Assembly (NCBI GenBank): GCA_001790815.1
Contig: MGDU01000010.1
Span: 2,621 to 66,620, forward strand
From: Candidatus Uhrbacteria bacterium RIFCSPHIGHO2_02_FULL_46_47
Lineage (GTDB): Bacteria; Patescibacteriota; Patescibacteriia; GWA2-47-26
Length of the DNA stretch: 64,000 bases
Reading direction: 5' to 3'
Part shown: in pieces, positions 1 to 64,000 of the stretch
How the letters are laid out: each line of letters opens with the position of its first letter
Numbering within the stretch: the stretch's first letter is position 1
Translations under genes and position numbers: made by a program
The notes under the pieces: generated by a model
Seen by the model: the letters and a program-made list of their open reading frames with translations, nothing else
Told to the model about the DNA's origin: nothing
Databases searched by the model: none

Positions 1-193
1 TGTGGAAAACCCAAAGTTTGTAATGGTAACCCGTATTGATCGTCCCAAGGATGTCCAATTTGCCGAGTCCTCGGCCGCCCCGCTTTTTGGCGAAATTGCG
101 CGATTTTTACTGCAATATTACGAGATTAAGCCAACCCGGCCGATTGTACAACACTGAGTGTGGTACAATATACGGAAGCTCAGCCTCCGTAAT

Positions 194-904
194 ATGCGCA
201 ATATCAATTTCTATAATGGAGGATTTTATCACATTTATAATCGCGGTGCATTAAAAGAACCGATTTTTTTAGAAGTGAATGACTATGTGCGATTTGTGCA
301 TGATCTGTACGAATTTAACGATGTAAATTATACTATTGATTTTCGGAAGATAACAGGAAGCTCAGCTTCCGTTGCATCCACGGAAGCTGAGCTTCCGAGC
401 ATTAAAAAGCCGCAGCGTGAGCCGGTGGTGGCGATCATATCATGGTGCTTGATGCCAAATCATTTTCATCTTTTCTTACAACAGCTGAAGGATGGTGGTA
501 TAAGTTTTTTTATGCATAAACTCGGCACCGGATACACCAACTATATTAATCGAAAATATGAAGAGCGGAGCGGACACCTTTTTCAAGGAAGATTTAAGGC
601 AAAACATATTGGGCAAGAAGGATATTTTTTACATATTTCGCGTTATATTCATCTGAATCCTGTGGATTTGATTGAGTCAGGATGGAAAGAAGATGGGATC
701 AAAGATTGGAATAAAATACAAGAATTTTTGGAAAATTACCGTTGGTCTAGTTACCAAGATTGGGTTGGGAAGAAAAATTTTCCATCTGTGTTGAATTTGA
801 ATGGAGTGGAGAAGATTTTTGAAGGTGCAGAAAAATATACAAGGTTTATGAAAGAATGGGCAACTGGAAATTATCAGCCGATAAAAAGTTTAGTTGCGGG
901 ATAA
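194..904 (+). CDS. REP-associated tyrosine transposase (RAYT, Y1 HuH transposase, IS200-like)
   Basis: Motif I FYHIYNRG, HuH motif MPNHFHLFL, catalytic-Tyr region SRYIHLNP. Start moved from 158 to the Met preceding motif I; about 17 aa (ITGSSASVASTEAELPS) between motif I and HuH are encoded by an inserted REP doublet. Confidence 0.8.
   Translation: MRNINFYNGGFYHIYNRGALKEPIFLEVNDYVRFVHDLYEFNDVNYTIDFRKITGSSASVASTEAELPSIKKPQREPVVAIISWCLMPNHFHLFLQQLKDGGISFFMHKLGTGYTNYINRKYEERSGHLFQGRFKAKHIGQEGYFLHISRYIHLNPVDLIESGWKEDGIKDWNKIQEFLENYRWSSYQDWVGKKNFPSVLNLNGVEKIFEGAEKYTRFMKEWATGNYQPIKSLVAG
356..396. repeat. REP-like palindrome doublet (family A, GGAAGCTCAGCTTCC) in-frame inside the RAYT gene
   Basis: Two 15-bp palindromes in inverted orientation separated by 11 nt; same element at 909-948 and 62243-62279. 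Confidence 0.8.
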
Positions 905-1025: not shown

Positions 1026-4000
1026 ATGAGGAAAATATCCCTATTTCTCCTATTTCTTTTAATAGGAGGCGCTGTCATATTTGGCCGTGCCTTAACGGTT
1101 TTTGCTGTTGCCGGGATTCCAAAAGTAATTAATCACCAAGGACGGCTTCTTGACAGTAGTGGCAATTTGCTTGGCGGATCCGGGACCAATTATTGTTTCC
1201 GATTTTCCATTTATGATGATGTAACCGTGGGCGCTCCGGACACCAAAGTTTGGCCAGCTGGCACGCCTTCTACCATGACCGCGCAGGTGCGCAATGGGGT
1301 GTTTAATGTAGGGATAGGGGATACGGCGGCCGGCGGCGATACACTGGATTTTAATTTTCAAGATAATGATACTGTATTTTTGAATGTGGAAGTTGCCGCG
1401 CAAATAAGTAGCTCATGCGCAGGAGTAACATTTGAAACTTTAAGTCCGCGCCAGCGCGTAGCTTCTTCCGGGTACGCGATTAATGCTGATACAGTTGACG
1501 GGCTTAATCCCGGCACTGGCGCGAACAATCTTTTGAAACTTGGTTCATCCGGCGAGATCGCGCTTGGCGGAACTACTTATTTGACTGCCGCCGGCGCGCT
1601 TTCAAACATCGCAAGTCTTACCGGTTCAGGCGCGCTGACTATTACTTCAAGCGCCTCTGGCGCGATTACTCTTGATGCCGCTTCAAATGTGGTTGCTATT
1701 GCGGCGGGCGATGAATTACAACTTGGCACGGCCGCGGCAGACCCTACTGGCGCAAACGGCCGCGTATTTTATAACACGGCAACCAATAAGTTCCGCTGTT
1801 ATGAAAATGGCGCGTGGGCTAATTGCATTGGCGCGGGCGGGAGCAGTACTTTGCAAGATGCCTATGGCAATGGAAATACCATTACCACAACTGATGCCCG
1901 CAACATTCTTTTTTCACTTGCAGATACTGCGACAGATTCGGATTTTATCATAGATCTTTTAGGCACTGGCAACATATTTGAAGTGCGCGATAGCGGCGTA
2001 GCTGTCGTGACTGTGGCCGATGGCGGCGCGACAACCTTTACCGGCGCGGTTACAGCCAATGGTAATATCAATTTTGACGATGCTGGCGCAGATACGATTT
2101 CAATCGGCGCTGCAGCAGATACCGTGACAATTACCTCTGACACCCTGTCTTTGACCGACAATAACTGGACAATTTCCACAGTGGGCGCGGCTTCTTTTGC
2201 CTCGCTTTCGGTGGGCGGCGTTTCTGATCCCTACGTGGACGAAACCGGAGACACCATGACCGGATCACTGACTTTCTCCGCAGTTGCCACTGACCTTACC
2301 ACTGGCGTGAATGAAGCCCTGACCATCTCTCCCAATGGCACTGGCGACTTGGTGGTTGACACAGACGCTGACACCACCCTGACCTTAAACGGCGGAGGAG
2401 ACGGAGTTGATTCTCTGGTGCTTACCGACGGCGATATTCTTGTTTCTGACGGCGATCTTGACCTTTCCGGCGGGGACTTCAATGTTACGCTGGATGCCGG
2501 CGATACGGCCAACATTTCCAAAACCTCAGCCAATGCCGGGGATGTGGTGGCTTTAGCCGGCACCTCAGTCAATGCCATTGACGTGCTGGATCTCTCCGCC
2601 ACCTCTATAGCTGACGCGGTAGCGGATGCCATAAACGGCTTGGTAATTAACTGGACTGAATCCACTGACGCTGACACTTTCACTGCCTTAAACATCGGCA
2701 ATACCACCACCACCAATTCCGCCACCACCGGCATTTCCCTCGGCACAGGTTACGACACCGACTTAAACGCCACGACCGACCTGACTCTGGGCATCGGCGG
2801 AACGAATGAACTCACCATCACCTCCACGGCCACATCTCCCTCCACCTCAGACGGCAATGCTCTGGGCACCACCTCCTTAATGTGGGGCGATCTGTTCCTG
2901 GCCTCGGGCGGAGTGATCAACTTTGACAATGGGGATGTTACCCTCACCCATGCCGCTAATGCGCTCACCATGGCTGGAGGAAATCTAACAGTTACTCAAC
3001 CTGTGTTTACTTCCGGTTCGCCTTTCGGCTTAACCTTCACCGGCGGGGCGCATACCACGCTTGCGGCTGGAACGCAGGCAAAAGACATATACTTCAATCT
3101 TGGACGGACAGTGCAGTTTGCAACCGGAGCGTTGGCTAATCAGGAAGTAATTACGATTGACGCTCCGACTTACGCTTTCGTGGGAGCCTCAACGCTTACA
3201 GAGGCAACAACATTAAACATCTCCGGTGCGCCTCAACAAGGCACAAACGCCACGATTACAAACGCTTACGGACTTACGATTAGCCAAACCAATTACGCTA
3301 GCGCAAATGCCGTCCAGTCATTGATTGAAATGCCCGGGATTTCCAACGGAGCCGGAGCAATAACATCCCGTATAGGATTAATCATTGCTGATGCGGGCGC
3401 TAACATATCGCTTGGCAATCAAACCGCTACGCTTACTTTACTTAAAGGGCTTAGTATCAATACGGTAACCTATGAGTCCACCACAAATACCCGAACTGTC
3501 ACAAACGCGATAGGGGCAACCATAGCCGCGCCGTCTTCAGGTACGAATGTGACAATGAACACCGTTGTTGCTCTTGTCCTTGGCGATGACAACACACAGG
3601 CTAGCCAAACAGGATTTGCGTACGCGGATTTGGTAACCGGCGGCAACACTTTGACGCTTACTGGCACAACACAGCTCACCAACGTGCCTTCAATTTCTAG
3701 TGTCAATGTTGGCGCAACTACGATAACGGACGCTTCGGCGATTACGGTAGACAGCGTGGCCAGTGTTTATATTGAGGGAGCTCCAATCGCGGCAGGGTCG
3801 GTGACGCTTACGAATGCTTATGCGTTGTGGGTGGATGCGGGGGCTATTAGATTTGATGATCAAATCCAATGGGGAGCAGGTGTTGCAGTTACAGCAGGGA
3901 ATTATTCTGTCGGGAGAAACGCTGATGGTACGAATCTATTGCAACTTAACGTGCCAACTGGCTCAACACACGAGTTTTCCGTGAACGATGTTTCCCAAGT

Positions 4001-7000
4001 CAATGTGGGATTGGGCGGATTTAGCTTCCCTACTGGTGCCGCAATAACCGCGGCTGGTTATCAAGTTCTCCGCGATGCCGATGGAACGAATCAATTGCAT
4101 TTTAATGTTCCGACTGGAGCCACCTTTGAATGGTCGGTAAATGATGTTGCGGAGATGACGCTTTCGGCAACGGCGGTGAATTTTCAGAACAATTCCTTGA
4201 CTACGACTGGCGGTGGTTCGCTTACCGGTACTTGGACTGATTTGGGAAGCGTAACAACGATAGATATTAACGGCGGCACCATTGATGGCGCGACAATCGG
4301 CGGAGCGGTTGCAGGTGCAATCACTGGTACAACTATCACCGCTAATACCAATTTTGTCCCGGACGCGGATGACGGAGCTGGACTGGGTATTTCTGGTACA
4401 GCTTTCTCAGATTTGTTCTTAGCTTCTGGCGCAGTCATCAACTTCGCGGCTGGCGATGTAACGCTCACGCACGCTTCCAACTCCCTCGCAGTAGCCGGCG
4501 GCGACCTGAATGTGGATATTATTGATGGGCAAACTATTAACCTGGACGGGGATGCCAGCCCGACTGCGGATCTGGTAACCATTGGCTCTGGGGACACTTC
4601 GGCCACCGGCGGAGTGGACGCGCTACAGCTTACTTTCGGAACCTCCAATGTTTCAGGAAATGTCATTGATATTACACCGAGTTATGCCGGCGGAGCTACG
4701 GATCTTCTTTCCTACAAAATCATTGATATTGACGCTTTTTCTCCCACCAACGGCGCTGGCACTGATGGAGTTACTGGGATTGACTTTGGCGCGCTGACTG
4801 ACCCAGGCGCCACCATCAATTCTTTTGCCATGAATTTTGGCACGGGTTGGGACACGGATATCAACGCCGTTACCTCTTTGGAAATTGGCATTGGCGGCAC
4901 CAATGAGCTGGCACTCACGGCCACGGCTCTTGCTCCCTCCACCTCGGACGGCAATGCCCTGGGCACCACCGCCTTGATGTGGTCCGACCTGTTCCTCGCT
5001 TCGGGTGGAGTGATCAACTTTGACAACGGAGATGTTACTTTGACGCATGCGGCCAATGCGTTGACCATGGCTGGAGGAAACTTGACCGTCACCCAGCCGG
5101 TGTTTACTTCAGGTTCTCCTACCGGCTTGACCTTTACTGGCGGGGCGCATACAACACTTGCGGCGGGAACACAGGCAATAGACATAAACTTCAATCTTGC
5201 CCGAACAGTTCAATTCGCCACTGGCGCGTTAGCCAACCAAAGCGCGATAAACATCAGCGCGCCGACTTATGGTTTTGTCGGGGCTTCAACACTTACTACT
5301 GCGGAGTTGCTTACGTTAAGCGGATTTCCTCAGGCCGGAACAAACGCCACAATTACAAACGAGCGGATACTCCATATTGCCTCAGGCACAGCCAATGCCG
5401 GTATCGCATACAGTTTTTTCATTGATATGCCGGGGATTGCCAACGGCTTTGGCGCAATGACGAGCTTAGAGGGCATAATGCTCTCTGCGGGAGGCAATGT
5501 TTCTTTAGGGAACCAAACTGCTACTCTTTCTAATCTGATTGGGCTTAGCATTGATACTGTAACTTACGAGTCCACGACAAATGTAAGAACAGTGACAAAT
5601 GCAGTGGGAATGGTAATCTCTGCGCCATCTTCCGGTTCAAATGTCGTGATGAACACAGTGATAGCGGGCGCCTTTGGCGGAGATACAACGCAGGTGAGCC
5701 AGACAGCATTCCAATATGTGGATATTTTAACCGGCGGCAATACCCTGACGCTTACCGGCACAACGCAATTAACAGGAGCACCTTCAATTTCCAGCATTGC
5801 TGTTGATCCAATTACCATTACCGACGCTTCGGCAGTAACGGTTGATAACGCGGCAAGCGTGTACATCACGGGCGCGCCTATTGCGGCAGGGTTAGTTACG
5901 CTTACCAATGCTTATGCGCTTTGGGTTGATGCTGGGGCTATTAGATTTGATGACCATGTTCAATGGGGAGCAGGCGTTGCGGTTACAGCAGGAAATTATT
6001 CTGTCGGAAGAAATGCGGATGGTACGAATCTATTGCAGTATAACGTCCCGACTGGCTCAACGCATGAGTTTTCCGTGAATGATGTTTCCCAAGTCAATGC
6101 GGGATTGGGCGGATTTAGTTTCCCTACTGGTGCCGCAGTTACGGCGGCTGGTTATCAAGTTCTCCGCGATGCAGATGGTACAAATCAACTACATTTCAAT
6201 GTGCCCACAGGAGCTACCTTTGAATGGAGTGTAAACGATGTTGCCGAGATGACGCTTTCCGCAACGGCGGTGAACTTCCAGAATAATTCCTTGACTACGA
6301 CTGGCGGCGGTTCTCTTACGGGTACTTGGTCGGATTTGGGAAGTGTAACAACGATAGATATAAATGGAGGTACGGTGGACGGAGTAACGATTGGCGGAGC
6401 AGTGGCTGGAGCGATTACGGGAACGACCATCACAGCTACTACAAGTTTTGTAAGTGCAGTAGGTTCTGCCGCCGCTCCTACTTACACTTTCACAGGCGAT
6501 ACGAATACAGGAATGTCCGCGGCTACGGCTGATACGCTTATTCTCTCCACAGCTGGTGTCGCAGGATTAACGATTGATCCGACCCAGGACTTTACCCTAA
6601 CACAAGGCGTTTCTGCGACTGGTTCTCCTACCGGCCTTACCTTTACCGGTGGGGCGCATACTACGCTCGCGGCCAGTACAGAGGCGAGAGATGTTTACTT
6701 TGACCTTTCCAGAACAGTGCAGTTTGCAACAGGTGATATTACAGTGCAACGAGCAATGGTTATTGACGCGCCGACTTACGCGGCAGTTGGAGCAAGCAAC
6801 TTCACGCATACTTATGGTGTAGTCATTGACGGTGCGCCCAATCCGGGTACGAATGTTACATTTACCGGAATTTCCTCGGCTTTGAATATCGGGAATATGG
6901 ATAACGGGAACAATTATAGTCAAACAGAAGTTATTCATGGAATCGCCATGATTCCGGGTATTGCCAATGGTACGGGTGCCGTGGCAGAGCGCGGAGCATT

Positions 7001-10000
7001 TACCACTGCTCCGCCTGATTCAGGAATCCACCTTGGCAATCAAACCGCGACTTTGGATCTTCTTTATGGAATGGGTGCATTTGGCGGCCCGGTTGATTCA
7101 ACTACCAATACCCGCACGGTTACAAATGCCGCCACGCTTTATATTGATGGGCCGTTCAGCAATGCCGGAAATGTCACTTTCACCAACGGGCCTTATTCGC
7201 TTTGGGTGGATGCGGGGGCTATTAGATTTGATGATCAAATCCAATGGGGAGCAGGAGTTGCAGTTACAGCAGGGAATTATTCTGTTGGGAGAAACGCAGA
7301 TGGTACTAACTTAATGCAATTTAATGTACCTACTGGAGCGGCTTTTGAGTTCTCAATCAACGATGTTGCTCAAATTACTGGTGGTCTAGGGGCATGGAAT
7401 TATGCGGCTGGAGCTAGTTTTGCTGGAGGAGCCGCAAATTACATCATCGGAAGAAATGCTGACGGAACAAACCTCATGCAGTATAACGTCCCAACAGGAG
7501 CTTCGCATGAGTTTTCAATCAATGATGTTGCGCAAATAGCTATAGGTGGAGGTCAATTTTCCTTCATCACGGGTACGGCGACCGCTGGGGCTAGTTATTC
7601 TGTTGGACGAAATGCCGATGGTACGAATTTAATGCAGTACAATGTTCCGACTGGAGCTTCGCATGAGTTCTCTGTGAATGATGTTACCGAAATGACCCTC
7701 TCCGCAACAGCGGTGAATTTTCAGGATAATTCAATCACTACGACTGGCGGCGGTTCGCTTACGGGCACTTGGACTGACTTGGGTTCAGTTACCACGGTAG
7801 ACATCAACGGCGGAACGATTGATGGTGTAACTATTGGCGGAGCAGTTGCAGGGGCAATCACTGGTACAACTATCACAGTTAATACTAATCTTGTGCCAGA
7901 CGCGAATGACGGTGCAGGTCTTGGTATTTCTGGCACAGCATTTAGTGACTTGTTCTTAGCTTCTGGGGGAGTCATTAACTGGGCGGCAGGGGATGTAACA
8001 CTTACTCATGCCACAGATGCGCTCACCATGGCTGGAGGAAACTTGACCGTTACCCAGCCTGTGTTCACTTCCGGCTCACCCACCGGTCTTACCTTCACGG
8101 GCGGGGCGCATACCACGCTAACGGCTGGCAATCTTATTGATGTCAACTTCAACCTTGCTCGCACTGTTCAATTCACAACAGGTGCCGCGTTTGATTATTA
8201 CGGGGTTCAGATTTCGGCTCCGACTCTTGGAGCCACCGCCGCCACACAGACCATCTCAGGAACTACAATGTTTATCGGTGGCGGTCCAATAGCTGGAACG
8301 AATGTAACATTGAGTGGAAGCACCGCGCTAGAAGTGGACGGCTGGTTTTCCAATTCAGATATCGCGGATACCGTGTTTATTGATTATCCAGAGATCGCTA
8401 CTGGATTTGGCGCGGCGACAGAACGAGCCGCCTTAAGGATCGGAGGTGATACCTTCATTCTTGGTAATCAGACCGCCACTTTGACCGATCTGGCGGCCAT
8501 TAGCATTGGTCAAGCTACTTTCACATCCACCGACCTTGTCCGAACTGTTACCAATCCAAGCGCAATTTACATCGAGGGCGCGCCAGTGGCGAGTACGAAT
8601 GTTACTTTCACCAACGGGCCTTATTCCCTTTTTGTGGATGCCGGCGCCGCGCGGTTTGACGGCGCGGTGGCTTTGGGCGCCCAGCAATCGCTTACGGTGA
8701 ACTCAACCACCCCATCTGTTTCAGCTGGTTCCCACTTTGTTACGGCCAATTCTGCTGGAACGGTTATTAGCAATTTCACCAGCGGCCACAATGGGCAGAT
8801 CCTTGTCGTGGAAATCAACGACGCCAATACTGATTTTGACTGCACCGCTTCAAACCTTAATTGCGGTGGCGCGGACATCACCACTCCCGCGGCCGGAGAT
8901 CTTTTCACCTTCGCGTACGACGGCACGAACTGGAACCTCATCAACTGGATGGATACCTCCGCGACCCAAACCGGCGCGGATATTGCGGAATATATGTATG
9001 CGGATGCGGAGATTGCGCCAGGAACTGTGGTAGTGGCGCACCCAACGCGCAAAGAAGCTGTTATGGCGGGCGCGAAAGCTTATGACGCGACAGTGGTGGG
9101 CATTATTTCAGACGTTGAAGGTAAGTTGAGCGATATTCGACCGGGTCTCGTGCTTGGTGAAGGTCGCGGTAATGTGCCGGTCACTCTTGCCGGACGCGTG
9201 ATGGCGGCGTTTGATTTACAAAATGGTCTAGCATTTCCGGGCGATCCGCTTACCACCAGTACTAACGGCCGGCTGATGGTGGCTAAAAAAGCCGGCCCGA
9301 TTGTGGGCAAGGCCTTGAGTTTGGCCGAAAACGGATATGTGGTCGCTATGGTGAGCGTGGGTTGGTACAATCCCACGGATCTTTCACAAGTAAGCCAGGA
9401 GATGGAGGATTTGCGCGAACAAGTAAGAATCGCGCAAGCGGAAACTGCTCCAATAGAATTTACGCTGGAAGCCATGCAAAAGTTGGATGTTCGGGTTGCT
9501 AATCTTGAAACTTTGATTGCCGAACCGATAGAAGAGTTGTCAATACTTTCCAATCGCGTGGGAACCCTTGCGGATGCTTATGCGGAGGCGATAATATGGC
9601 GCGCAAGTGTTGAGACACAACTTATCGCGTTTACTGGTCGAACTGATACGCTGGAGGCGCGGGTAAATGCGATTGATCCTGTGCTTGAGGATTTGAAAAA
9701 TCGTTTGAGCGCGGTTGAGAATCCGTCACTGAGTGATGGTTCGGAAAATCACTCAGTGACAACGTTGGATTTGAGTAAGCTGGAATTGTCAGGCAGTTTG
9801 ACATTGCAAAGTGGGGCAACGATTTCCGGTGGTTTGCGCGTGGATAGCGTGAGCGCAATAGGGGATCTGCTGGCACTGATGAGTGATGTGAACTTTATTG
9901 GCCGGCCGTACTTTAACGCGGATACCGGAGGATTCGCACTTGTGAAAAAAGGTGAACGTGAGGTGCGAGTGGCGTTTACGCAAGAGTATTTGGAACAGCC

Positions 10001-10649
10001 GGTGGTAAACGCGACAATTTCACTTGAAGCCCTTGATGAATCAGCGCTTACGGAAGATCAGCGCGCTTTGCTTGATGAAGCGCAGAAAAAAGATTTGCTT
10101 GCCCAGATGCAGAGCGAACAAGAAGAGGCGCTTTTTACAAGTGGGGTGCGCTACTTGGTAACGCGCAAGAGTACCAAAGGATTTACGATTCTTTTGAGCG
10201 CGGCCGCTCCATCAGATGTGCGATTTAGCTGGATCGCGCTGGCAGTGAAGAACGCACGAACGCACACGAAAGTTGAAGATACACTAACGGACACGAACAC
10301 AAGTAGCGCGGCACTTGATGTGCCGCTGGAGGCACCCTCACCCCCGCAGTCATCCGACGCGGCTACGAACCCTCTCCCTGCGGGAGAGGGAGTAGTTTCT
10401 CCTCCGGATGATGCGGCGGTTCTTGAACCTGCCACAGAGCCCACGCCGGAAGGGCTAAGTCCTGTCGCAGGGCTTAGCCCTGAAACCAGCAACGCCCCAG
10501 AACCTGCACCTGAGCCAGTCGGGTCATCCGACCCGACTGCCCCGTCGGATGACGGGGCAGAACCCGCACCGGAAACCGCACCAGAGGCCACGCCAACCTC
10601 TGATATTTCATCCACAGATAGCATAGTTGCCACAGAGGAAACGCCATGA
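1026..10649 (+). CDS. giant (3207 aa) secreted/surface repeat protein, fibre/adhesin-like
   Basis: N-terminal signal/TM ([14 protein letters not shown]). Thr/Gly/Ala/Asn-rich beta-repeat modules are reiterated ([44 protein letters not shown] x3-4; [36 protein letters not shown] x3+). A C-terminal globular segment ([23 protein letters not shown]...WYNP) is followed by a coiled coil and a Pro/Ala/Glu-rich tail. The strand is uninterrupted for 9.6 kb. Confidence 0.85.
2791..8130 (+). repeat. intragenic long tandem/mosaic repeats (about 2.1-kb period) within the giant gene
   Basis: 2791-4886 vs 4887-6980 align with roughly 80-85% DNA identity, by eye. A third partial copy with extra [23 protein letters not shown] sub-repeats lies at about 7190-8130. 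Confidence 0.75.
9723..9760. repeat. palindromic insertion element, family D (TCACTGAGTGAT..ATCACTCAGTGA), in-frame in the giant gene
   Basis: 14-bp perfect inverted repeat with 11-nt spacer; encodes [14 protein letters not shown] near-identical copy sits at 13290-13328. Confidence 0.75.
10335..10391. repeat. GC-rich palindromic insertion element, family C, in-frame in the giant-gene tail
   Basis: CCCTCACCCCC...CCCTCTCCCTGCGGGAGAGGGAG; encodes [20 protein letters not shown]. Confidence 0.6.
10452..10483. repeat. palindromic insertion element, family B (GGGCTTAGCCC pair), in-frame in the giant-gene tail
   Basis: agggctaagtcct..cagggcttagccctg; encodes [10 protein letters not shown]. Confidence 0.7.
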
Positions 10650-10969: not shown

Positions 10970-11085
10970 TAATTTAAAAATAAGTATACAACTATGGGAA
11001 ATGCAAAACGACTCGCTACTCCTGAACCAACAACCGAGCCAGTTGCCACCGAAACCCAGCCGTGATATTATGACAGTTACTAAAT

Positions 11086-11133
11086 GTAGTCGCAGGTCTT
11101 TAGCCTGCGCGCAACCTAAAGAGTTGCGGCTAC
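11086..11133. repeat. REP/BIME-like element, family E (GTAG..hairpin(TCTTTAG loop)..hairpin(CTAAAGA loop)..CTAC)
   Basis: gtagtcGCAGGtctttagCCTGCgcGCAACctaaagaGTTGCggctac: two stem-loops with the conserved loop and different stems. Confidence 0.7.
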
Positions 11134-11153
11134 CTAATTATAATAAATAAAAT

Positions 11154-11549
11154 ATGGGAAATGCAAAACGTTTTGTTCCCCTAATTCTTTTTTTGCTACT
11201 TGTGGCCTCTGTCGCAGGAAATGCAATGCTGTATAAAAAGCTCAGAGTCCTTAAGCAAAATCCGCAAATGCTTGCACAAGAAGAAAATAAAGCCCTAGTT
11301 GCTAAAGTAGGCCAATTAATTGTTTTGCCTGAAGGCGAGGAGCCAACTGTTGCAACGGTAAATGAGCCGGAAAAACTCAAAGATCAGCCATTTTTCGCAA
11401 ATGCAAAACAAGGCGACAAGGTCTTGATTTACACTAAAGCGAAAAAAGCAATTTTGTATCGCACGGCGGAAAATAAGATTGTTGAAGTCGCGCCGGTAAA
11501 TATTGGTGAACAGCCAGCCGTAAGCGCGCCAGAGGCGCCTAAGGAATAG
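11154..11549 (+). CDS. small membrane-anchored protein, hypothetical
   Basis: 131 aa with N-terminal TM (FVPLILFLLLVASVAG); bracketed by inverted family-E elements. Confidence 0.5.
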   Translation: MGNAKRFVPLILFLLLVASVAGNAMLYKKLRVLKQNPQMLAQEENKALVAKVGQLIVLPEGEEPTVATVNEPEKLKDQPFFANAKQGDKVLIYTKAKKAILYRTAENKIVEVAPVNIGEQPAVSAPEAPKE

Positions 11550-11552
11550 TTT

Positions 11553-11607
11553 GTAGCCGCAACTCTTTAGGTTGCGCAATTGACGCCGGCTAAAGACCGG
11601 CGACTAC
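11553..11607. repeat. REP/BIME-like element, family E (inverted relative to the 11086 copy)
   Basis: gtagccGCAACtctttagGTTGCgcaattgacGCCGGctaaagaCCGGCgactac. Confidence 0.7.
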
Positions 11608-26592: not shown

Positions 26593-26766
26593 CACCAGCC
26601 AACGCCCATTGCGCATTTTGCACATTTTTTCATTGCTTTTTTGTTTTTGTGAATGTGCTATACTGATTTACTATGGTATCTCATCTCTATAACTCATATA
26701 TTAAGCGCAAGGAGAGATTTTCGGCTGGTTATCATAATTTGTACAATTCTCTTCCATTCAACACAT

Positions 26767-26798
26767 AACAAAAATCTCACGATCGTGAGATTTTTGTT
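26767..26798. promoter_or_regulatory. perfect 32-bp palindrome with TCACGATCGTGA core
   Basis: AACAAAAATCTCACGA|TCGTGAGATTTTTGTT. Confidence 0.55.
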
Positions 26799-26942
26799 AT
26801 AAACTGCCGCGAAGTCATTAGCGCACGCCAGCTGACTTTCGCAAATTATTCACTCCATAATATCATGCGCGAAAAGGAGGTTGTGGATAAGTCTATTTCA
26901 ATATGCATATCAAATGTGATACGATGGCCACACTTATCAATA

Positions 26943-26971
26943 ACAAAAAAGTCACGATCGTGAACTTTTTG
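26943..26971. promoter_or_regulatory. palindromic operator-like site (TCACGATCGTGA core) 10 nt upstream of the wHTH/Cas2-like gene
   Basis: acaaaaaagtcacgatcgtgaactttttg; a near-identical direct copy is downstream at 27607-27638. Confidence 0.55.
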
Positions 26972-26980
26972 CGATAGATT

Positions 26981-27628
26981 ATGGCGCAGCGTTTAAAGAA
27001 TTCAAAGCAAAAGTCCGCGAAATCGCAATCCAATGCCAGCCGCGCATCTAGGAGTCGTATGCTATCATCTGCCCGTGTGTATCTTCAGGATTTTGCGCAC
27101 GAGTTCTCGGTTTTTACCGGTGCGATATCAGGACGGCATCCTATGGGTTTTGCTGAGTACGAAGATAAGTTGGTCGCGCAAGAGGCGCGTGAGCGCAAAG
27201 CGCGACTTTACGAATTAAGGCGGCGCAAATGGATTGAAACAAAAAAGATAGGGGAGCGCTTGCTTGTGCGGCTTACAAAACAGGGCTGGCAACGCGCCCT
27301 TCGCGACCAAATTCGCTGTACTTCCGTAAAATGTAAAGACGGAATTTGCATTGTGGTTTTTGATGTGCCGGAATCCGAGCGACATGTTCGCGATGCCCTG
27401 CGCGAGATTTTGCAAAGTTGTAATTTTACAATGCTGCAAAAAAGCGTGTGGGTGAGCCGCAAAGATATTATCAAGCCGCTTTGCGCGCTTTTGCAGGGCG
27501 CGAAGCTTGAGCGCTGGGTTCGCATATTGGTTGGCAAAGAGCTTACAAGTTCATTTCTTAGGCGCACTATTACGCGCGCTCAAGCATCCACCGCATCCGC
27601 GATTGCAACAAAAAAGTCACGATCGTGA
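26981..27628 (+). CDS. winged-helix + Cas2-like domain protein (PaaX-like architecture?), paralog 1
   Basis: The C-terminal GICIVVFDVPESERHVRDALREILQSCNFTMLQKSVWV matches the Cas2 beta1-alpha1..QxSV core including the conserved Asp. The N-terminal half is Lys/Arg-rich with a wHTH-like wing (KKIGERLLVRLTKQGWQ). Confidence 0.6.
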   Translation: MAQRLKNSKQKSAKSQSNASRASRSRMLSSARVYLQDFAHEFSVFTGAISGRHPMGFAEYEDKLVAQEARERKARLYELRRRKWIETKKIGERLLVRLTKQGWQRALRDQIRCTSVKCKDGICIVVFDVPESERHVRDALREILQSCNFTMLQKSVWVSRKDIIKPLCALLQGAKLERWVRILVGKELTSSFLRRTITRAQASTASAIATKKSRS

Positions 27629-27638
27629 ACTTTTTGTT
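27607..27638. promoter_or_regulatory. palindromic site (TCACGATCGTGA core) downstream of paralog 1, about 90 bp upstream of cysS
   Basis: aacaaaaaagtcacgatcgtgaactttttgtt. Confidence 0.55.
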
Positions 27639-27705
27639 ATGCATTAAATTGCACGATAATTTCCATCTACGGGTTTTGTGATAGGTTTTATGAAATTTAT
27701 GAGTG

Positions 27706-27714
27706 TGATATACT
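27706..27714 (+). promoter_or_regulatory. extended -10 promoter (TGaTATACT) for cysS
   Basis: 12 nt upstream of the ATG at 27726. Confidence 0.4.
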
Positions 27715-27725
27715 GCGAATGATCT

Positions 27726-29381
27726 ATGTTCAAGCTTTATAATTCCTATACCAAGCGCAAGGAGGGGTTTCGGCCCGCCCATCAAGTGGGCGAGGCTCGC
27801 CTCCGGCGGCCGCTAAAGGATAAGCAGGTGGGGATGTATAATTGCGGGCCCACGGTCTATGACTATGTGCATATTGGAAATTTGCGCGCGTTTTTGTTTG
27901 CCGATATTTTGCGGCGGTATTTGGAATATCGTAGATACAAAGTGAAACAGGTGATGAATATTACTGATGTGGGGCATATGGTTGCCGATGGTGAAAATGG
28001 TGAGGATAAAATGTCCGTGGCAATGCGTCGAGAGGGTAAAGGGCCGGCGGAAGTCGCGCGTTTTTACGAAAAAGCATTTTTTCAAGACATCAATACGCTC
28101 GGTATCAAGCCAGCCTGGAAATATCCGCGTGCCACTGAGCATATTCCGGAGATGATCGCGCTAATTAAAAAATTACTCAAACGCGGGCATGCGTATTTGG
28201 TGGCGGAATCTGCACCACCCCTAACCCCTCCTCCACAAGGAGGGGAAACGAATCAATTTCCTCCCCTGCCCGAGGGGAGGTTAGGAGGGGTGGGAGCTTC
28301 TGTTTATTACGACTTATCTACTTTTCCAAACTACGGCAAACTTTCCGGAAACAAAGTAGATGATCTCATTCCCGGAGCACGAGTGGATGTTATTCATGAA
28401 AAACGCAATCCGTATGATTTCGCGCTGTGGATTTATAAACCGGAGCATGTTTTAAAATGGAGTGCGCCATGGGGCGCGGGATATCCGGGCTGGCATTTAG
28501 AGTGTTCTGCAATGTCCATGAAATATCTTGGGCAAACGCTTGATATCCACACAGGCGGCGAAGATAATAAGTTCCCGCATCATGAGTGCGAGATCGCGCA
28601 GTCAGAGGGCGCAACCGGCAAGCCATTTGCGCGCTATTGGTTGCATGTCAAACATTTACTGGTTGATGGCAAAAAAATGTCAAAATCGCTGGGAAATTTT
28701 TATACTCTGAAAGATTTACTGCAAAAAGGATATTCAGCGCGCGCGATTCGTTATGCGCTTATTTCAACGCACTATCGGGAAACTCTGAATTTTACTTTGG
28801 AAAGCGTGAAGGCGGCGGAGAATGCGTTGCAAAGGGTGGATGAGGTGGTGGATAGGTTGCATCCCCCCTCACCCCAACCCTCTCCCGCACGGGGAGAGGG
28901 AGTAAAGCGCATTCCCTCGCCCTTCATGGGAGAGGGGCAGGGTGAGGGTTTTGCGCGATTGGTCGCACGCACCCGCAAGGATTTTATTGCCGCCATGGAT
29001 GATGATTTAAATGTTTCAAAGGCGCTGGCAGTGATGTTTGAATTGGTGAAAAAAATCAATAAAGTAATGGATAGACCCTCACCGGTCCTTCGGACACCCT
29101 CTCCCGAAGGGGTCGAAGACGGGCCGAGCGAGCGCAGGCCCCGGGGAGGGGTGGGTGAGGGGTTGAAATTGCTGATGGAATTTGATGAGGTGCTGGGATT
29201 GGGGATTGGAAAAAGTGAAAAGCGCACTGTGCCAGAAGAAATTATGAAATTAGTGCAAGAGCGTGAAAAAGCGCGCAATAAAAAAGATTTTGGCCGTGCT
29301 GATGCGTTGCGTAAAGAAATTGCAGAACATGGCTATATTTTGGAAGACACAGCGCAAGGTCCGAGGGTGAAATTAAAATAG
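27726..29381 (+). CDS. cysS: cysteine--tRNA ligase (CysRS) with three in-frame palindromic insertions
   Basis: N-terminal [16 protein letters not shown] (class I HIGH), KMSKS present (KKMSKSLGN). At 551 aa vs about 460 typical, the excess comes from three family C elements encoding P/G/E-rich loops. Confidence 0.9.
28214..28295. repeat. family C palindromic element in-frame in cysS (1 of 3)
   Basis: caccaccctaacccctcctccacaaggagggg...cctcccctgcccgaggggaggttaggaggggtggga; encodes [28 protein letters not shown]. Confidence 0.8.
28863..28948. repeat. family C palindromic element in-frame in cysS (2 of 3)
   Basis: cccccctcaccccaaccctctcccgcacggggagaggg...gggagaggggcagggtgaggg; encodes [22 protein letters not shown]. 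Confidence 0.8.
29077..29162. repeat. family C palindromic element in-frame in cysS (3 of 3)
   Basis: ccctcaccggtccttcggacaccctctcccgaagggg...ccccggggaggggtgggtgagggg. Confidence 0.8.
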
Positions 29382-31051: not shown

Positions 31052-31066
31052 TTACTAATTATTAAG

Positions 31067-31175
31067 GTAGTCGCCGCTCTTTAGGCGGCGCGCAGGCTAA
31101 AGACCTGCGGCTACATATGGCACAAGTAGTCGCCGCTCTTTAGGCGGCGCGCAGGCTAAAGACCTGCGGCTACAT
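31067..31175. repeat. two tandem 60-bp copies of the family E REP/BIME-like element
   Basis: gtagtcGCCGCtctttagGCGGCgcGCAGGctaaagaCCTGCggctacatatggcacaag x2; the second copy ends 2 nt before the ATG at 31176. Confidence 0.8.
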
Positions 31176-31652
31176 ATGGCACAAGAAGAAAAACCAAAAA
31201 TAGTCCCAACTGAACAACCGCCGGAAATAGAAAAAATTCCTGAAGCGCCAAAAGAGGCGCCTGTCCTTGAGGTTCCAATGGAACGTCCGCCTGCGGAAAA
31301 AGAATTGCCGGCAAAAGCGCCGCCGCCAATTGCGCCGGCAGTGTTGCCGCCGGCAGTACCAGCAGATCCAGTGCTTAAGCAAATTGAAACAATCCTTGCG
31401 GAGGATTTGGAAGAGGTTTATGCGCAACTTCCGCCAGAGCTTAAGCCAAAGTTTAAGGTCAAGGGCGAGGAAGTCGCGAGCGCAATTCGCACTATGATGG
31501 CAACTGCCAAGATTAAAGCGCGCAAAGTATTAAAGCTCATTGCGCAGTGGCTCAAAATTATTCCGGGTGTGAACAAATTTTTTCTGGAACAAGAAGCCGC
31601 GATCAAAGCGCAGAAAATTATGGCTGTCGCGCAGGAGGAGAAGGAAGTATGA
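31176..31652 (+). CDS. Pro/Ala/Glu/Lys-rich protein, hypothetical
   Basis: 158 aa; a low-complexity PEAPKE/PPAV N-terminal half, then a helical C-terminal half. Confidence 0.5.
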   Translation: MAQEEKPKIVPTEQPPEIEKIPEAPKEAPVLEVPMERPPAEKELPAKAPPPIAPAVLPPAVPADPVLKQIETILAEDLEEVYAQLPPELKPKFKVKGEEVASAIRTMMATAKIKARKVLKLIAQWLKIIPGVNKFFLEQEAAIKAQKIMAVAQEEKEV

Positions 31653-31732
31653 TGCCAATATACGAATTTCATGCCAATCTACAAATTGCAAATTCGTATT
31701 TGTAGATTTGAATAAGATTTGTAGATTTGCAT
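31652..31732. repeat. family F intergenic element (ATGCCAATCTACGAATTTCATGCCAATCTACAAAT...ATTTGTAGATTTGAATAAGATTTGTAGATTTGCAT)
   Basis: Contains four TTTGTAGATT/AATCTACAAA half-sites in inverted arrangement. Begins at the stop of the upstream gene and ends 8 nt before the next ATG; copies at 40973 and 48320. Confidence 0.75.
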
Positions 31733-31739
31733 TACATTT

Positions 31740-34906: not shown

Positions 34907-34956
34907 CACACATTGCAAAATGGGAGACGTTGCGATGCGTTGAAAATATGCAAAAA

Positions 34957-34998
34957 CCGTGATTGTCAACTATTCACGATCGTGATAAACTGACAAGC
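34957..34998. promoter_or_regulatory. nested palindromic operator-like site (TGATTGTCA..TCACGATCGTGA..TGACAAGCA) immediately upstream of wHTH/Cas2-like paralog 2
   Basis: Ends 1 nt before the ATG at 35000. Confidence 0.55.
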
Positions 34999-34999
34999 A

Positions 35000-35620
35000 G
35001 TGAAGCACCCCAAAATTGAGCAAAAAAATATGAGTCTGAAATTAAAACTAAAACAGTGGGAAATTTCACTGTTGGAATGGGAACTTGCGCATCCTCAGGA
35101 AGAGAGTGTGCATGTGTCGCGTACTCGCAAGTGGACAAGCACTGGGCTTGGCCCCGAAGTCTATGCCGCGGAGCAACGCTATTGGACGCGCAAGAAATTG
35201 GTGGCCAAGCAAAAAATGCTTGCCCAGCGCCTCGCATACCTAAAGCGACATCATTATTTGGAGCGCGTTAAGGAAGCGGATCACACTTTTGAAAAACTGA
35301 CCGCGCGCGGAAAGTTTGAAGTATTGCGCCTTCAGTTCGCGCTGCATATGCAGGCACAGCGTCACAAACCATGGAATGGAAAATTTTATTTGGTGGTATT
35401 TGATATTCCGGAAACAATGCGCCGATATCGCGATTTTTTCCGAAAACTGCTGAAAAGCAACGGTTTTAAGTTCTTGCAGTTGAGCGTGTGGATGACGCGC
35501 TATGACCCGCGCCCGGCGCTTGACGATATAGTGCGTTATCTAAAATTGCAGATACATTATGAACTAATGGAAATTGATTGCGGCGGTTGCAGCCCGCGCG
35601 TGCAACGGAAGATTAGGTAG
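35000..35620 (+). CDS. winged-helix + Cas2-like domain protein, paralog 2
   Basis: C-terminal KFYLVVFDIPETMRRYRDFFRKLLKSNGFKFLQLSVWM (Cas2-like core); N-terminal Lys-rich plus a wHTH-like segment. Confidence 0.6.
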   Translation: MKHPKIEQKNMSLKLKLKQWEISLLEWELAHPQEESVHVSRTRKWTSTGLGPEVYAAEQRYWTRKKLVAKQKMLAQRLAYLKRHHYLERVKEADHTFEKLTARGKFEVLRLQFALHMQAQRHKPWNGKFYLVVFDIPETMRRYRDFFRKLLKSNGFKFLQLSVWMTRYDPRPALDDIVRYLKLQIHYELMEIDCGGCSPRVQRKIR

Positions 35621-35642
35621 TTTGTGCGAAAATCTCCAAAAA

Positions 35643-35687
35643 TGTGATTGTCAAATACTCACGATCGTGATAAACTGACAATCAGTG
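35643..35687. promoter_or_regulatory. nested palindrome TGATTGTCA-N21-TGACAATCA with central TCACGATCGTGA (direct repeat of the 34957 site)
   Basis: tgattgtcaaatactcacgatcgtgataaactgacaatca. Confidence 0.55.
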
Positions 35688-40972: not shown

Positions 40973-41053
40973 ATGCCAATCTACGAATTTCATGCAAATC
41001 TACAAATCGCGAATTTGTATTTGTAGATTTGAATAAGATTTGTAAATTTGCAT
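40973..41053. repeat. family F intergenic element, copy 2 (immediately upstream of murJ)
   Basis: atgccaatctacgaatttcatgcaaatctacaaatcgcgaatttgtatttgtagatttgaataagatttgtaaatttgcat. Confidence 0.75.
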
Positions 41054-41057
41054 TGTC

Positions 41058-42779: not shown

Positions 42780-43736
42780 ATGCAATCACGGCCAAGGCGC
42801 ACTCTCTATCAAGATAGGACATGGCTTAAGGTGCGGCTAAAGCGCGGCTTGACCGCGCCTCAGATTGCAAATCAGGTCAAAGTCAGCACGCCTACCATAA
42901 CACGATGGATCGCGATTCATGACCTTGTTGGATGTTCCTTGCGCGCGATTTGTCGCAATTATCTGAACAGACGCGCGCGGGCAACCTATGCCAATAGAGC
43001 GTGGCTTCGCGCAGAACTTGCGGCAGAACACACCTACAAAGAGATTGCCAAAAAGGTAGGCGTTTATCCGCTTACCATTGCCAATTGGGCCTTGCGGTTC
43101 AAGTTGGCTAATGGGCACCTTTCTCATACTGCCACTTGTACCTACGCCAATCAGAAGTGGCTGGCCGCCCAGATTGCGCGCGGGTTTCTTGATAGGCAAA
43201 TTGCTCACGAAACCGGCGTAACAGCTCACACTATAGAATATTGGCGCAAGCAGTTTGGCATCAGGTGCCCGCCGCGGCAGCGACCACCGAGAAATCTGAA
43301 GGAGCGGCGTGCTTTTGGGACGTGGCTTGCGCCGCGCCTGCATCGCTTAGCGCTCCCGGAGACACAAGGCGCTGCCCTTTGCGCGTATTACGCAGTAAAC
43401 GGCACTTTCTGTGAGCAGAAGCAATTGGCACAAGAGCAGGGAGTGACTCCGCATGGTATTGATTATCGCAGAACCAAAGCACTTGCGGTCATACTGGATA
43501 CCTTTGGCATGGGACAGCTCGCAAGATTTCCGGAGATAGTTAAGCGACGAAAAACACTTCAAGCGTTTGTGCCAAAGAAACAAACACACACGCTACGCAC
43601 ATATCGTGATAAGGCGTGGCTTAGGGCGCGCGTTGCGCGCAACTTATCCGACAAGCAAATCGCGAGCGAGGTTGGAAACACTAGTTTTACAACTATCGCG
43701 CATTGGCGTCGATCTTTTGGGATCACAAGGAGGTAG
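42780..43736 (+). CDS. protein built from tandem helix-turn-helix repeats (5-6 units, about 46 aa each), IS3-OrfA-like HTH
   Basis: Repeats of the form Y.N..WL...LA....K(E/Q)IA...GV...TI..W...FGI (e.g. YANRAWLRAELAAEHTYKEIAKKVGVYPLTIANWALRF). No transposase catalytic domain follows. Confidence 0.55.
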   Translation: MQSRPRRTLYQDRTWLKVRLKRGLTAPQIANQVKVSTPTITRWIAIHDLVGCSLRAICRNYLNRRARATYANRAWLRAELAAEHTYKEIAKKVGVYPLTIANWALRFKLANGHLSHTATCTYANQKWLAAQIARGFLDRQIAHETGVTAHTIEYWRKQFGIRCPPRQRPPRNLKERRAFGTWLAPRLHRLALPETQGAALCAYYAVNGTFCEQKQLAQEQGVTPHGIDYRRTKALAVILDTFGMGQLARFPEIVKRRKTLQAFVPKKQTHTLRTYRDKAWLRARVARNLSDKQIASEVGNTSFTTIAHWRRSFGITRR

Positions 43737-46337: not shown

Positions 46338-46458
46338 TGATATAGTATTCAACCATTATGAAACGCAAGACATTTCAGCGTGCCTGGACAGTAGTCGTAA
46401 TCATTATGATTGCGGCGATGATTTTATTTACCATCGTGCCGTATCTGTTCTAGTGAAC

Positions 46459-46481
46459 GCCGGCTAAAGACCGGCGACTAC
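46459..46481. repeat. family E REP-like half element (single hairpin + GACTAC) 8 nt upstream of recJ
   Basis: GCCGGctaaagaCCGGCgactac. Confidence 0.65.
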
Positions 46482-48319: not shown

Positions 48320-48408
48320 ATGCCAATATACGAATTTCATGCCAATCTACAAATAACAAATAATTCATTCGCAATTCGTAGATTAGCATAAGATTTGTAG
48401 ATTTGCAT
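48320..48408. repeat. family F intergenic element, copy 3 (immediately upstream of rnhA)
   Basis: atgccaatatacgaatttcatgccaatctacaaataacaaataattcattcgcaattcgtagattagcataagatttgtagatttgcat. Confidence 0.75.
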
Positions 48409-57626: not shown

Positions 57627-57641
57627 AGGTCGAATCAAAGT

Positions 57642-57738
57642 GTAGCCGCCGGTCTTTAGCCGGCGCACTTGCTCAAAGTAGATTGTAGCCGCCGGTCTTT
57701 AGCCGGCGCACTCGCGCAGCTTAAAGCGCTGCGGCTAT
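57642..57738. repeat. family E REP-like cluster: two identical GTAGCCGCCGGTCTTTAGCCGGCGCAC units plus a third hairpin
   Basis: 57642-57668 and 57685-57711 are identical; 57714-57738 is GCGCAGCttaaagcGCTGCGgctat. Confidence 0.75.
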
Positions 57739-63920: not shown

Positions 63921-63956
63921 AATTATTCACGATCGTGAGTAATAAGTTGTTATGAC
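63921..63956. promoter_or_regulatory. third copy of the TCACGATCGTGA palindrome/operator-like site, immediately upstream of a truncated third paralog
   Basis: aattattcacgatcgtgagtaataagttgttatgacaatg, resembling the 35643 site. Confidence 0.5.
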
Positions 63957-64000
63957 AATGAGAAAGAAAATACAAAAGAAAAAATCAAGGCAGGCGGAAT
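63957..64000 (+). CDS. 5' end of a third wHTH/Cas2-like paralog (truncated by the window end)
   Basis: MRKKIQKKKSRQAE.. Lys-rich N-terminus like the 26981/35000 proteins, directly after the palindromic site. Confidence 0.35.

Follow-up and report, generated by a model that had tools for sequence, protein, structure and literature searches.

Short winged-helix, Cas2-like proteins in a Candidatus Uhrbacteria genome and related bacteria, and the lineage-specific palindromes on both sides of their genes

What do genes named after a CRISPR (clustered regularly interspaced short palindromic repeats) component do in DNA that contains no CRISPR system, and why is each of them enclosed by copies of one palindrome? 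The question is raised by a 64,000-nucleotide stretch (hereafter, the window) of contig MGDU01000010.1 from Candidatus Uhrbacteria bacterium RIFCSPHIGHO2_02_FULL_46_47, a genome of groundwater origin. Six exact copies of the 12-mer TCACGATCGTGA lie in the window (at 26777, 26952, 27617, 34974, 35659 and 63927), as compared with 0.06 expected from shuffled sequence, and none of 100 shuffles reached six. All six adjoin three paralogous genes on the same strand, p1, p2 and p3, as a sequence-only reading of this DNA had noticed; that observation of palindrome-bracketed paralogs holds. The same reading had seen no CRISPR array or other cas genes, and every scan of the window agreed: a repeat scan found no CRISPR-like array in the 64 kb, Rfam returned a single tRNA, no CRISPR repeat family and nothing near the palindromes, and no cas or paa genes were present among the window open reading frames (ORFs) scanned with Pfam or carrying precomputed Pfam matches. 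No genuine fourth paralog was found in the window by tblastn; a weak match at 17806-17567 on the minus strand (E 0.03) runs antisense to a real 406-amino-acid ORF and was discarded as spurious. The interpretation that we favour, by a modest balance of probability, is that the three genes encode self-repressing dimeric mini-PaaX regulators that duplicate as operator-gene-operator cassettes.

From profile matches and a structural model, p1, p2 and p3 are assigned as winged-helix plus Cas2-like proteins of the PaaX type without its effector domain, which is the protein type that the sequence-only reading had proposed. The strongest match is to Pfam PF20803 (PaaX_M, 'PaaX protein central Cas2-like domain'), with E-values of 1e-15 for p1 and 4e-15 for p2 (58 and 56 bits, cutoff 24). 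The Cas2 models are passed marginally by PF09827 (25.5 and 23.9 bits, cutoff 23.8) and by TIGR01573 at 32 bits (cutoff 24.5), and they align to p1 and p2 only over their first 35-56 model positions. These marginal passes explain the name 'CRISPR-associated endonuclease Cas2' given to the proteins by the Prokaryotic Genome Annotation Pipeline (PGAP). Defence-system models likewise gave Cas2 matches only, and PHROG gave no match. Towards the N-terminus, the PaaX_N Pfam model found no match, and only weak DUF6293_C or PadR winged-helix matches were returned; Y1_Tnp, a model that does detect an unrelated gene at 158-904, did not match p1 or p2.

The PGAP name, the TIGR01573 score and the PaaX_M match could be taken to mean that these are true CRISPR Cas2 proteins or true PaaX regulators of phenylacetate catabolism. 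This is extremely unlikely. No cas1, other cas gene or array was found in the 64 kb or in any fetched neighbourhood, and the Cas2 match is partial. As for PaaX, the full-length equivalog model TIGR02277 fails by a wide margin (19 bits, cutoff 264.55), no paa genes are present, and PaaX_C has no match in p1 or p2, which end about 25-30 residues after the Cas2-like domain. The proteins are neither CRISPR components nor phenylacetate regulators.

An AlphaFold model (mean pLDDT, the predicted local distance difference test, of 77) comprises a long helix, then a hairpin that forms the wing (residues 85-98) and, at residues 122-185, a domain of beta-alpha-beta-beta-alpha-beta topology. Block means are 85-95 over residues 61-180, 56-69 over residues 41-60 and 44-65 over residues 1-40. 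The model aligns to PaaX over 114-133 residues, its N-terminal part being of low confidence (44-69 for residues 1-60). A sequence search of the PDB matched Cas2 weakly and did not find PaaX, and the link to PaaX rests on Pfam and on the fold comparison. Four residues (D128, P130, R137 and S155) never vary among 149 family representatives that are at most 50% identical to one another, and E131, R141 and W157 hardly do. D128 is the metal-binding-type Asp of Cas2, which had been picked out from the sequence alone. Cas2 forms dimers; the Cas2-like domain examined here most likely does so as well, as in PaaX and Cas2.

Gene p1 (26981-27628, plus strand) encodes 215 amino acids, with a basic N-terminal tail followed by the predicted winged helix and the Cas2-like/PaaX_M domain at the residues given above. 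The palindromes at this locus lie where they had been reported, but p1 has three of them and not two. The first, palA (26765-26800), is a perfect 36-bp palindrome, ATAACAAAAATCTCACGATCGTGAGATTTTTGTTAT, that matches its own reverse complement at 100% over 36 nt and stands as a solo copy 142 bp upstream of palB. Its predicted hairpin (-19.7 kcal/mol as RNA, -14.1 as DNA, z about -9) is stronger than the folding predicted for palB, palC and the p2 sites. The imperfect palB (26943-26976; AACAAAAAAGTCACGATCGTGAACTTTTTGCGA; repeat family D16) ends 4 nt before the p1 ATG, where a long palindrome had been noted just ahead of the start codon, and is the candidate upstream operator. A near-identical direct copy, palC (27607-27638), overlaps the last codons and stop of p1, so that its core is read in frame as TCA CGA TCG TGA, or S R S stop; the SRS C-terminus recurs in the orthologs P0002, P0007 and P0008.

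Gene p2 (35030-35620, plus strand) is a divergent paralog with the same two domains (34% identity to p1 over 120 amino acids, E 1e-13). The earlier reading had started it at GTG 35000 (206 amino acids), directly behind its palindrome; the ATG at 35030, which gives 196 amino acids, is more likely the start, because every homolog begins MS[LF]KLKLK. One assembly also annotates p2 as 196 amino acids. Two direct repeats of 58 bp, about 90% identical and of the general pattern TGATTGTCA-N5-core-N5-TGACAA(G/T)CA, enclose the gene, one upstream at 34942-35000 (TGATTGTCA-N5-TCACGATCGTGA-N5-TGACAAGCA, plus strand) and one downstream at 35628-35685 (plus strand). The layout TGATTGTCA-N21-TGACAATCA around the core, which had been ascribed to both p2 sites, is exact downstream and has one mismatch upstream. 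It had also been likened to the split box of PaaX-type regulators, and this comparison failed: the published PaaX box is TGATTC-N27-GAATCA (PMC9493321), and the p2 ortholog (64% identity), which lies between different genes than p2, has TTGTTGTCAA...TTGACAACAA where p2 has TGATTGTCA...TGACAATCA, so that TGATT is not conserved. The conserved part, TTGTCA, is instead a -35-like hexamer, and the core falls in the promoter spacer.

Of p3, only the 5' end (63958-64000, plus strand; MRKKIQKKKSRQAE..., about 14 codons) is present before the window ends. Its upstream palindrome, TTATTCACGATCGTGAGTAATA, occupies 63922-63943 with the core at 63927-63938. Other assemblies of the same organism supply the full protein (P0014, 204 amino acids, 56% identical to p1 and carrying PaaX_M), encoded directly after ligA. 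One of them (locus L009, where the upstream site is found at 5970) shows that a single site precedes p3 and that two more, beyond the end of the window, follow it. The position ligA-gene-gatC is kept by p3 orthologs across four genomes, and the orthologs, at 58-63% identity compared with 69-77% for their neighbours, evolve faster than the genes around them; this pattern of position and rate is what vertical descent would be expected to give.

The three genes belong to a very large family, whose proteins mostly have ~170-215 amino acids. A profile search that covered 1.84 billion cluster representatives recovered 3421 clusters (50% identity, E<=1e-10), with hosts that include Uhrbacteria, Kerfeldbacteria, Saccharibacteria and other Patescibacteria. 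All of the top 150 clusters encode proteins of 119-224 amino acids, and in ten sampled members PaaX_M was the sole solid domain, accompanied by weak winged-helix or Cas2 matches. Peptide patterns found no relatives in IMG/VR viral contigs, and tblastn found none among INPHARED phages or PLSDB plasmids. The loci compared were seven from genomes and, out of 529 or more from metagenomes, the 80 best. The examined neighbourhoods contain housekeeping genes (cysS, ligA, purM, a methyltransferase and similar), with no conserved neighbour and no adjacent antitoxin gene. Flanking genes are co-oriented in about 70% of cases on either side, and no special orientation preference was seen.

Throughout these loci the palindromes follow the gene. 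The orthologs of p1, p2 and p3 have the unaltered 12-mer both upstream and downstream, whereas their flanks diverge and protein identity is no more than 58-83%. The layout persists in more distant members with other, lineage-specific cores, such as GTCCGGCCGGAC, GACGATCGTC, CCACGGCCGTGG, ATGTCCAGCTGGACAT, GGTCCGGCCGGACC, GTCCCGGCCGGGAC, TTGCCATGGCAA, ATGCTATAGCAT and CGCACGATCGTGCG, and perfect palindromes reach 50 bp. When an identical, perfectly palindromic 10-mer was demanded within 260 bp upstream and within 260 bp downstream of a gene, 25 of 70 non-redundant family genes had one, as against none of 56 control ORFs from the same loci; several of the family genes that failed this strict test have the same design with an imperfect centre. 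The cassette-like bracketing described for the window is therefore a family-wide trait. Nor are the palindromes scattered over unrelated loci, which the sequence-only reading had named as grounds for giving up its proposal: besides the six window sites, each of the 51 TCACGATCGTGA copies that the fetched loci (516 kb) contain has a family ORF no more than 300 bp away, and the flanks, 78.6 kb in all, hold no further occurrence of the locus-specific core. A core constant among orthologs, variable between branches and exclusive to the gene suggests that something acting in trans reads it and evolves together with the gene; the encoded protein would be the simplest candidate. No clean rule was obtained for a recognition code relating helix and wing to the core, TCACGA cores being present in several distant clades, and no second genome with two paralogs, in which sharing of the core could be checked, was found among the fetched loci. 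In one locus, L079, the centre reads CGGTCG upstream (-136) and CGACCG downstream (+35), so that the two copies are mutually inverted, unlike the direct copies of p1, p2 and most other loci. At three related family loci (L052, L063 and L075) a perfect DnaA-box-like 9-mer, TTATCCACA, stands just after the downstream palindrome; the neighbours at L075 are rplU and hypothetical genes, not dnaA.

The same data bear on a plainer account, in which the palindromes are mere terminators or insulators of a compact genome, copied with a gene whose product regulates something else. Downstream copies do resemble long hairpins, some with A and T tracts, and the upstream copy often comes just after the preceding gene. 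Yet terminators would not need an exact 12-mer to be conserved across orthologs while its flanks change, nor a core that varies between branches and is always common to both copies of one gene; no control ORF had matched palindromes, and a terminator scan did not call the palindromes terminators. We regard this account as improbable.

The position of the upstream copy suggests what a bound protein might do. At p2 a promoter-like site at 34963-34991 (TTGTCA, 17 nt, TAAACT, TG-extended) has the core in its spacer, and the same promoter-like hexamers recur in the downstream repeat at 35648-35676. The p2 ortholog at locus L018 is arranged in the same way and has a second match besides (TTGACA, 18 nt, AATAAT). 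At L052 (TTGACT, 18 nt, TAAAAT) the -35 hexamer lies in the right arm of the upstream palindrome. In about ten further loci, judged by eye, the right arm or the core contains TTGAC or TGGACA, and a -10-like hexamer follows after 17-18 nt. The most promising p1 and p3 promoters, again picked by eye, would have the palindrome just downstream of the start site, and a promoter tool found nothing convincing there. The p1 candidate (26897-26925, plus strand; TTCAAT, 17 nt, TACGAT, with TGa before it) was not reported by the stricter scan; the region is 75% conserved with that of the p1 ortholog at L021, and, if the promoter is real, palB is in the 5' untranslated region (UTR). All of these positions would suit repression.

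In the model of self-repressing regulators, a dimer would read the 12-bp palindromic core, and, since the upstream copy overlaps the gene's own promoter (at the -35 hexamer or spacer, at the start site, or early in the transcribed region), the bound dimer would shut down its own gene. The autoregulation thus proposed extends an earlier guess, of which the protein type is borne out. The downstream copy, which is found from 19 nt before to 175 nt after the stop codon, may serve as a second operator, either as a roadblock or as a loop partner, and perhaps also as an insulator or terminator hairpin towards the neighbouring housekeeping genes. The whole operator-gene-operator unit could then be copied and inserted as a block, which would explain both the presence of three paralogs in 64 kb and the insertion of p1 before cysS.

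The palindromes themselves show a symmetry that dimer binding would not by itself account for. As a rule the perfect palindrome is longer in the downstream copy (arms of 16-25 bp) than in the upstream one (5-8 bp). At positions 6-10 of the arms, counted from the centre, differences between the two copies of a locus are matched by a mirror-image change in the opposite arm in 38 of 45 cases, which keeps each copy symmetric. Arm mismatches are rare (15 of 668 pairs downstream, 18 of 412 upstream), mismatches on the sense strand show no G.T excess (three G.T and two A.C downstream, two and six upstream), and the symmetry continues through the centre. Taken together, the scarcity of mismatches, the missing G.T excess and the symmetric centre point to a constraint at the level of DNA rather than of an RNA hairpin, and argue for cruciform or hairpin DNA, or for correction of one arm by the other.

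These features also bear on the proposal that control is exerted on RNA, with hairpins in the 5' UTR and at the 3' end of the transcript bound or cleaved by the Cas2/VapD-like domain, which would thereby control how stable its own mRNA is. To judge from the names of PDB entries, there are ribonucleases among the Cas2 and VapD proteins; palB and the p3 site are probably in the 5' UTR; the downstream copy keeps close to the stop codon; the hairpins are predicted to be strong; and mirrored changes preserve the pairing. This proposal is nevertheless quite unlikely. At many loci, p2, L018 and L052 among them, the upstream copy coincides in part with the -35 hexamer or spacer, and so would not be present in the gene's own transcript. 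An RNA loop would need no symmetry at the centre, G.U pairs are not tolerated on the sense strand, and the core is conserved in sequence beyond what pairing demands.

The p1 locus preserves a trace of how such a gene arrived. To its left, at 26625-26725 (plus strand), lies a decayed duplicate of the cysS promoter and first ~17 codons, which translates as M V S H L Y N S Y I K R K E..., resembling the start of cysS; to its right, at 27674-27774 (plus strand), are the working cysS promoter and 5' end, with the CysRS gene cysS itself (27726-29381, plus strand) directly after the cassette. The two segments align with a local score of 52, compared with 18.5 +/- 2.2 and a maximum of 28 for shuffled sequences, and they bracket a block of ~950 bp that holds palA, palB, p1 and palC. 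In the coding part of this ~100-bp duplication the differences, as read from the alignment, fall mostly at third codon positions, and look as if the two copies derived from different cysS alleles. Three related genomes (L103, L104 and L105) keep the synteny around cysS (surface protein, cysS, a response regulator where present, CorA or another gene, a small ORF and DUF8128/TrwB), with gaps of 1-125 bp before cysS and neither family gene nor palindrome there. As their cysS sites are empty, p1 is a lineage-specific insertion in front of cysS. One genome with an empty cysS site, GCA_030674435.1, nevertheless has a p3 ortholog beside ligA, and p1 was probably derived from a p3-like gene (56-58% identity). 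The p1 ortholog P0002 (83% identical) also precedes cysS; the CysRS proteins of the two loci are 66% identical, or about 75% without gap columns.

Such an insertion could be the work of a selfish or mobile cassette, in which the Cas2-like domain is a nuclease or strand-transfer helper guided to the palindromes by the winged helix. The protein would act on the two flanking copies, perhaps while they adopt a cruciform or hairpin shape; by cleaving both of them it would release or duplicate the gene, and the direct repeats would have been left behind by the insertion. Much can be marshalled for this idea. Direct repeats of 30-58 bp, with the palindrome inside them, lie on both sides of the gene, p1 is missing from the same site in three related genomes and stands within the ~100-bp duplication, the p2 ortholog occupies another neighbourhood, and p1 is far closer to its ortholog than is the adjacent CysRS. 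Further, the Cas2-type Asp and several charged residues are invariant, no regulon was detected, the long perfect palindromes change in mirrored fashion, and the cores resemble restriction-type hexamers (CGATCG, CGGCCG, CAGCTG, CCATGG). Against it stand the p3 orthologs, with their constant position in four genomes and vertical-like evolution, the lack of a solo palindrome at the empty cysS sites, a low copy number, the lack of relatives in viral contigs, phage records and plasmids, and the absence of a transposase, integrase or Cas1 partner. The 100-bp duplication is also, to our knowledge, unlike the target duplications of known transposases. We therefore hold this explanation to be unlikely, though not negligible. 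A related possibility, and a rather doubtful one, is that the repeat-gene-repeat unit is a minimal self-acting element whose protein cuts its own palindromes, or helps to recombine them, through the invariant Cas2-type site. If this were so, the cassette could duplicate, invert or move, as in the insertion of p1 at cysS; it would be a free-living relative of Cas2 that acts on palindromic direct repeats without Cas1, and it would bear on how Cas2 and palindromic CRISPR repeats came together. Whatever the mechanism, movement of the cassettes is real but rare, as is seen when the vertical descent of the p3 orthologs is set against the insertion of p1 and the different neighbourhood of the p2 ortholog.

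Several observations also weigh against the model of self-repressing regulators that we favour. No regulon is visible, the only detectable sites in the 78.6 kb of flanks and the 516 kb of loci being those that flank the gene itself; this is a poor fit to an ordinary transcription factor and suggests another job. A single core is common to p1, p2 and p3, although their recognition helices differ greatly, and the core is a different one in close p1 relatives from other lineages. Nor is dimer binding by itself enough to account for the mirrored arm changes, which point to hairpin or cruciform pairing or to arm-to-arm correction, and the invariance of D128, P130, R137 and S155 seems to exceed what a dimerisation scaffold would need. 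The p1 and p3 promoters are weak or unclear, and the downstream p2 copy faces a convergent gene and cannot be the promoter of that gene.

Among known systems, the closest is PaaX, the repressor of phenylacetate catabolism of E. coli W (PDB 8A39), which consists of PaaX_N, PaaX_M and PaaX_C. PaaX is about 305-316 amino acids long, whereas the proteins described here have about 200 and lack the C-terminal effector domain for phenylacetyl-CoA. The PaaX operator is split by a 27-nt spacer, in contrast to the contiguous 12-bp palindrome found here, which has no paa genes nearby. The present family also differs from PaaX in keeping the Cas2-type Asp and in having sites that flank only its own gene, on both sides. 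With Cas2 (PF09827, TIGR01573) it shares the ferredoxin-like fold, the pattern hhhFD[IV]P...R..R..L...GF..LQ.SVW, an invariant Asp that ends strand 1 and a score above threshold; unlike Cas2, it is fused to a predicted winged helix, has neither cas1 nor an array, and matches the models in part. Stand-alone Cas2 proteins have about 80-120 amino acids, as against 196-215 here, with a predicted DNA-binding N-terminal half, and CRISPR arrays differ from the single pair of repeats around a 600-bp gene. The VapD-type toxins, which are relatives of Cas2, are set apart by the predicted DNA-binding domain of this family and by its want of an adjacent antitoxin or conserved neighbour.

Two other groups are alike in layout. 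REP-associated Y1 transposases (RAYT) and the IS200/IS605 elements have a small gene bracketed by palindromes that co-vary with it, but the present family has no Y1/HUH domain and no dispersed palindromes in the 64 kb, 78.6 kb or 516 kb of DNA. AspA and TubR, autoregulated centromere-binding winged-helix proteins with a palindrome upstream of their own gene, bear a weak N-terminal resemblance (E 0.2-1) that is not significant; this family has no partition genes, and has the Cas2-like domain and a second, downstream copy. The Cas2-like domain of PaaX is already known (PF20803; PaaX structure 8A39). A short two-domain family of the candidate phyla with private bilateral palindromes and lineage-specific cores is not described in the open-access literature that was searched.

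Thousands of candidate-phyla proteins named 'CRISPR-associated endonuclease Cas2' are thus predicted to be two-domain, PaaX-like DNA binders without CRISPR context, and the misnaming inflates the counts of CRISPR components in candidate-phyla genomes. Since each member has its own readable candidate operator, the 3421 clusters form a natural series in which the co-evolution of winged helix and palindrome may be followed, in organisms with few known regulators. The combination of bilateral palindromes, mirrored symmetry, no visible regulon, invariant Cas2-type residues and a clean insertion is atypical of ordinary repressors. Should the protein act on the palindromes as DNA structures, this would be a small genetic element of a new type, with which ideas on how Cas2 and PaaX arose could be compared.

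The window holds other repeats and genes as well. A GC-rich palindromic repeat, CCCTCACCCCAACCCTCTCCC-N4-GGGAGAGGG, is found at 10369, 11634, 28866-28936, 41321, 44915, 45756, 47554 and 60984, one copy being inside the cysS ORF and read in frame, like in-frame palindromic elements. The CysRS encoded here has 551 amino acids, compared with 482-516 in its relatives (L021 and L103-L105), and the extra length consists of proline/glycine-rich inserts that coincide with this repeat family. A dispersed double-hairpin repeat, GTAGTCGCCGCTCTTTAGGCGGCGCGCAGGCTAAAGACCTGCGGCTAC, is present at 11074-11144, 11541-11607, 31055-31184 (with a tandem pair of 59-nt units at 31067-31184), 46457-46481 and 57630-57715. 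An IS200-like Y1 transposase gene (158-904, plus strand; Pfam Y1_Tnp, 5.9e-11) has its own perfect hairpin, GAAGCTGAGCTTCCGTAA/TTACGGAAGCTCAGCTTC, after the gene (910-946) and a related hairpin inside it (356-396); neither hairpin has any relation to the TCACGATCGTGA sites, and both may have a connection with the dispersed hairpin repeats. Two intergenic repeats complete the set, the A-rich AATGTAAAATGAAAAATGTAAAAT at 13024, 15329, 20646, 39922 and 55360, and the 82-nt ATGCCAATATACGAATTTCATGCC...ATTTGTAGATTTG at 31652-31733, 40973-41054 and 48320-48401. A giant ORF of 3207 amino acids (1026-10649, plus strand) has internal repeats of ~2.1 kb that are 72-89% identical and probably encodes a surface protein, and a 318-amino-acid protein (42780-43736, plus strand) carries four different helix-turn-helix motifs in series (HTH_23, HTH_28, MerR_1 and HTH_3).

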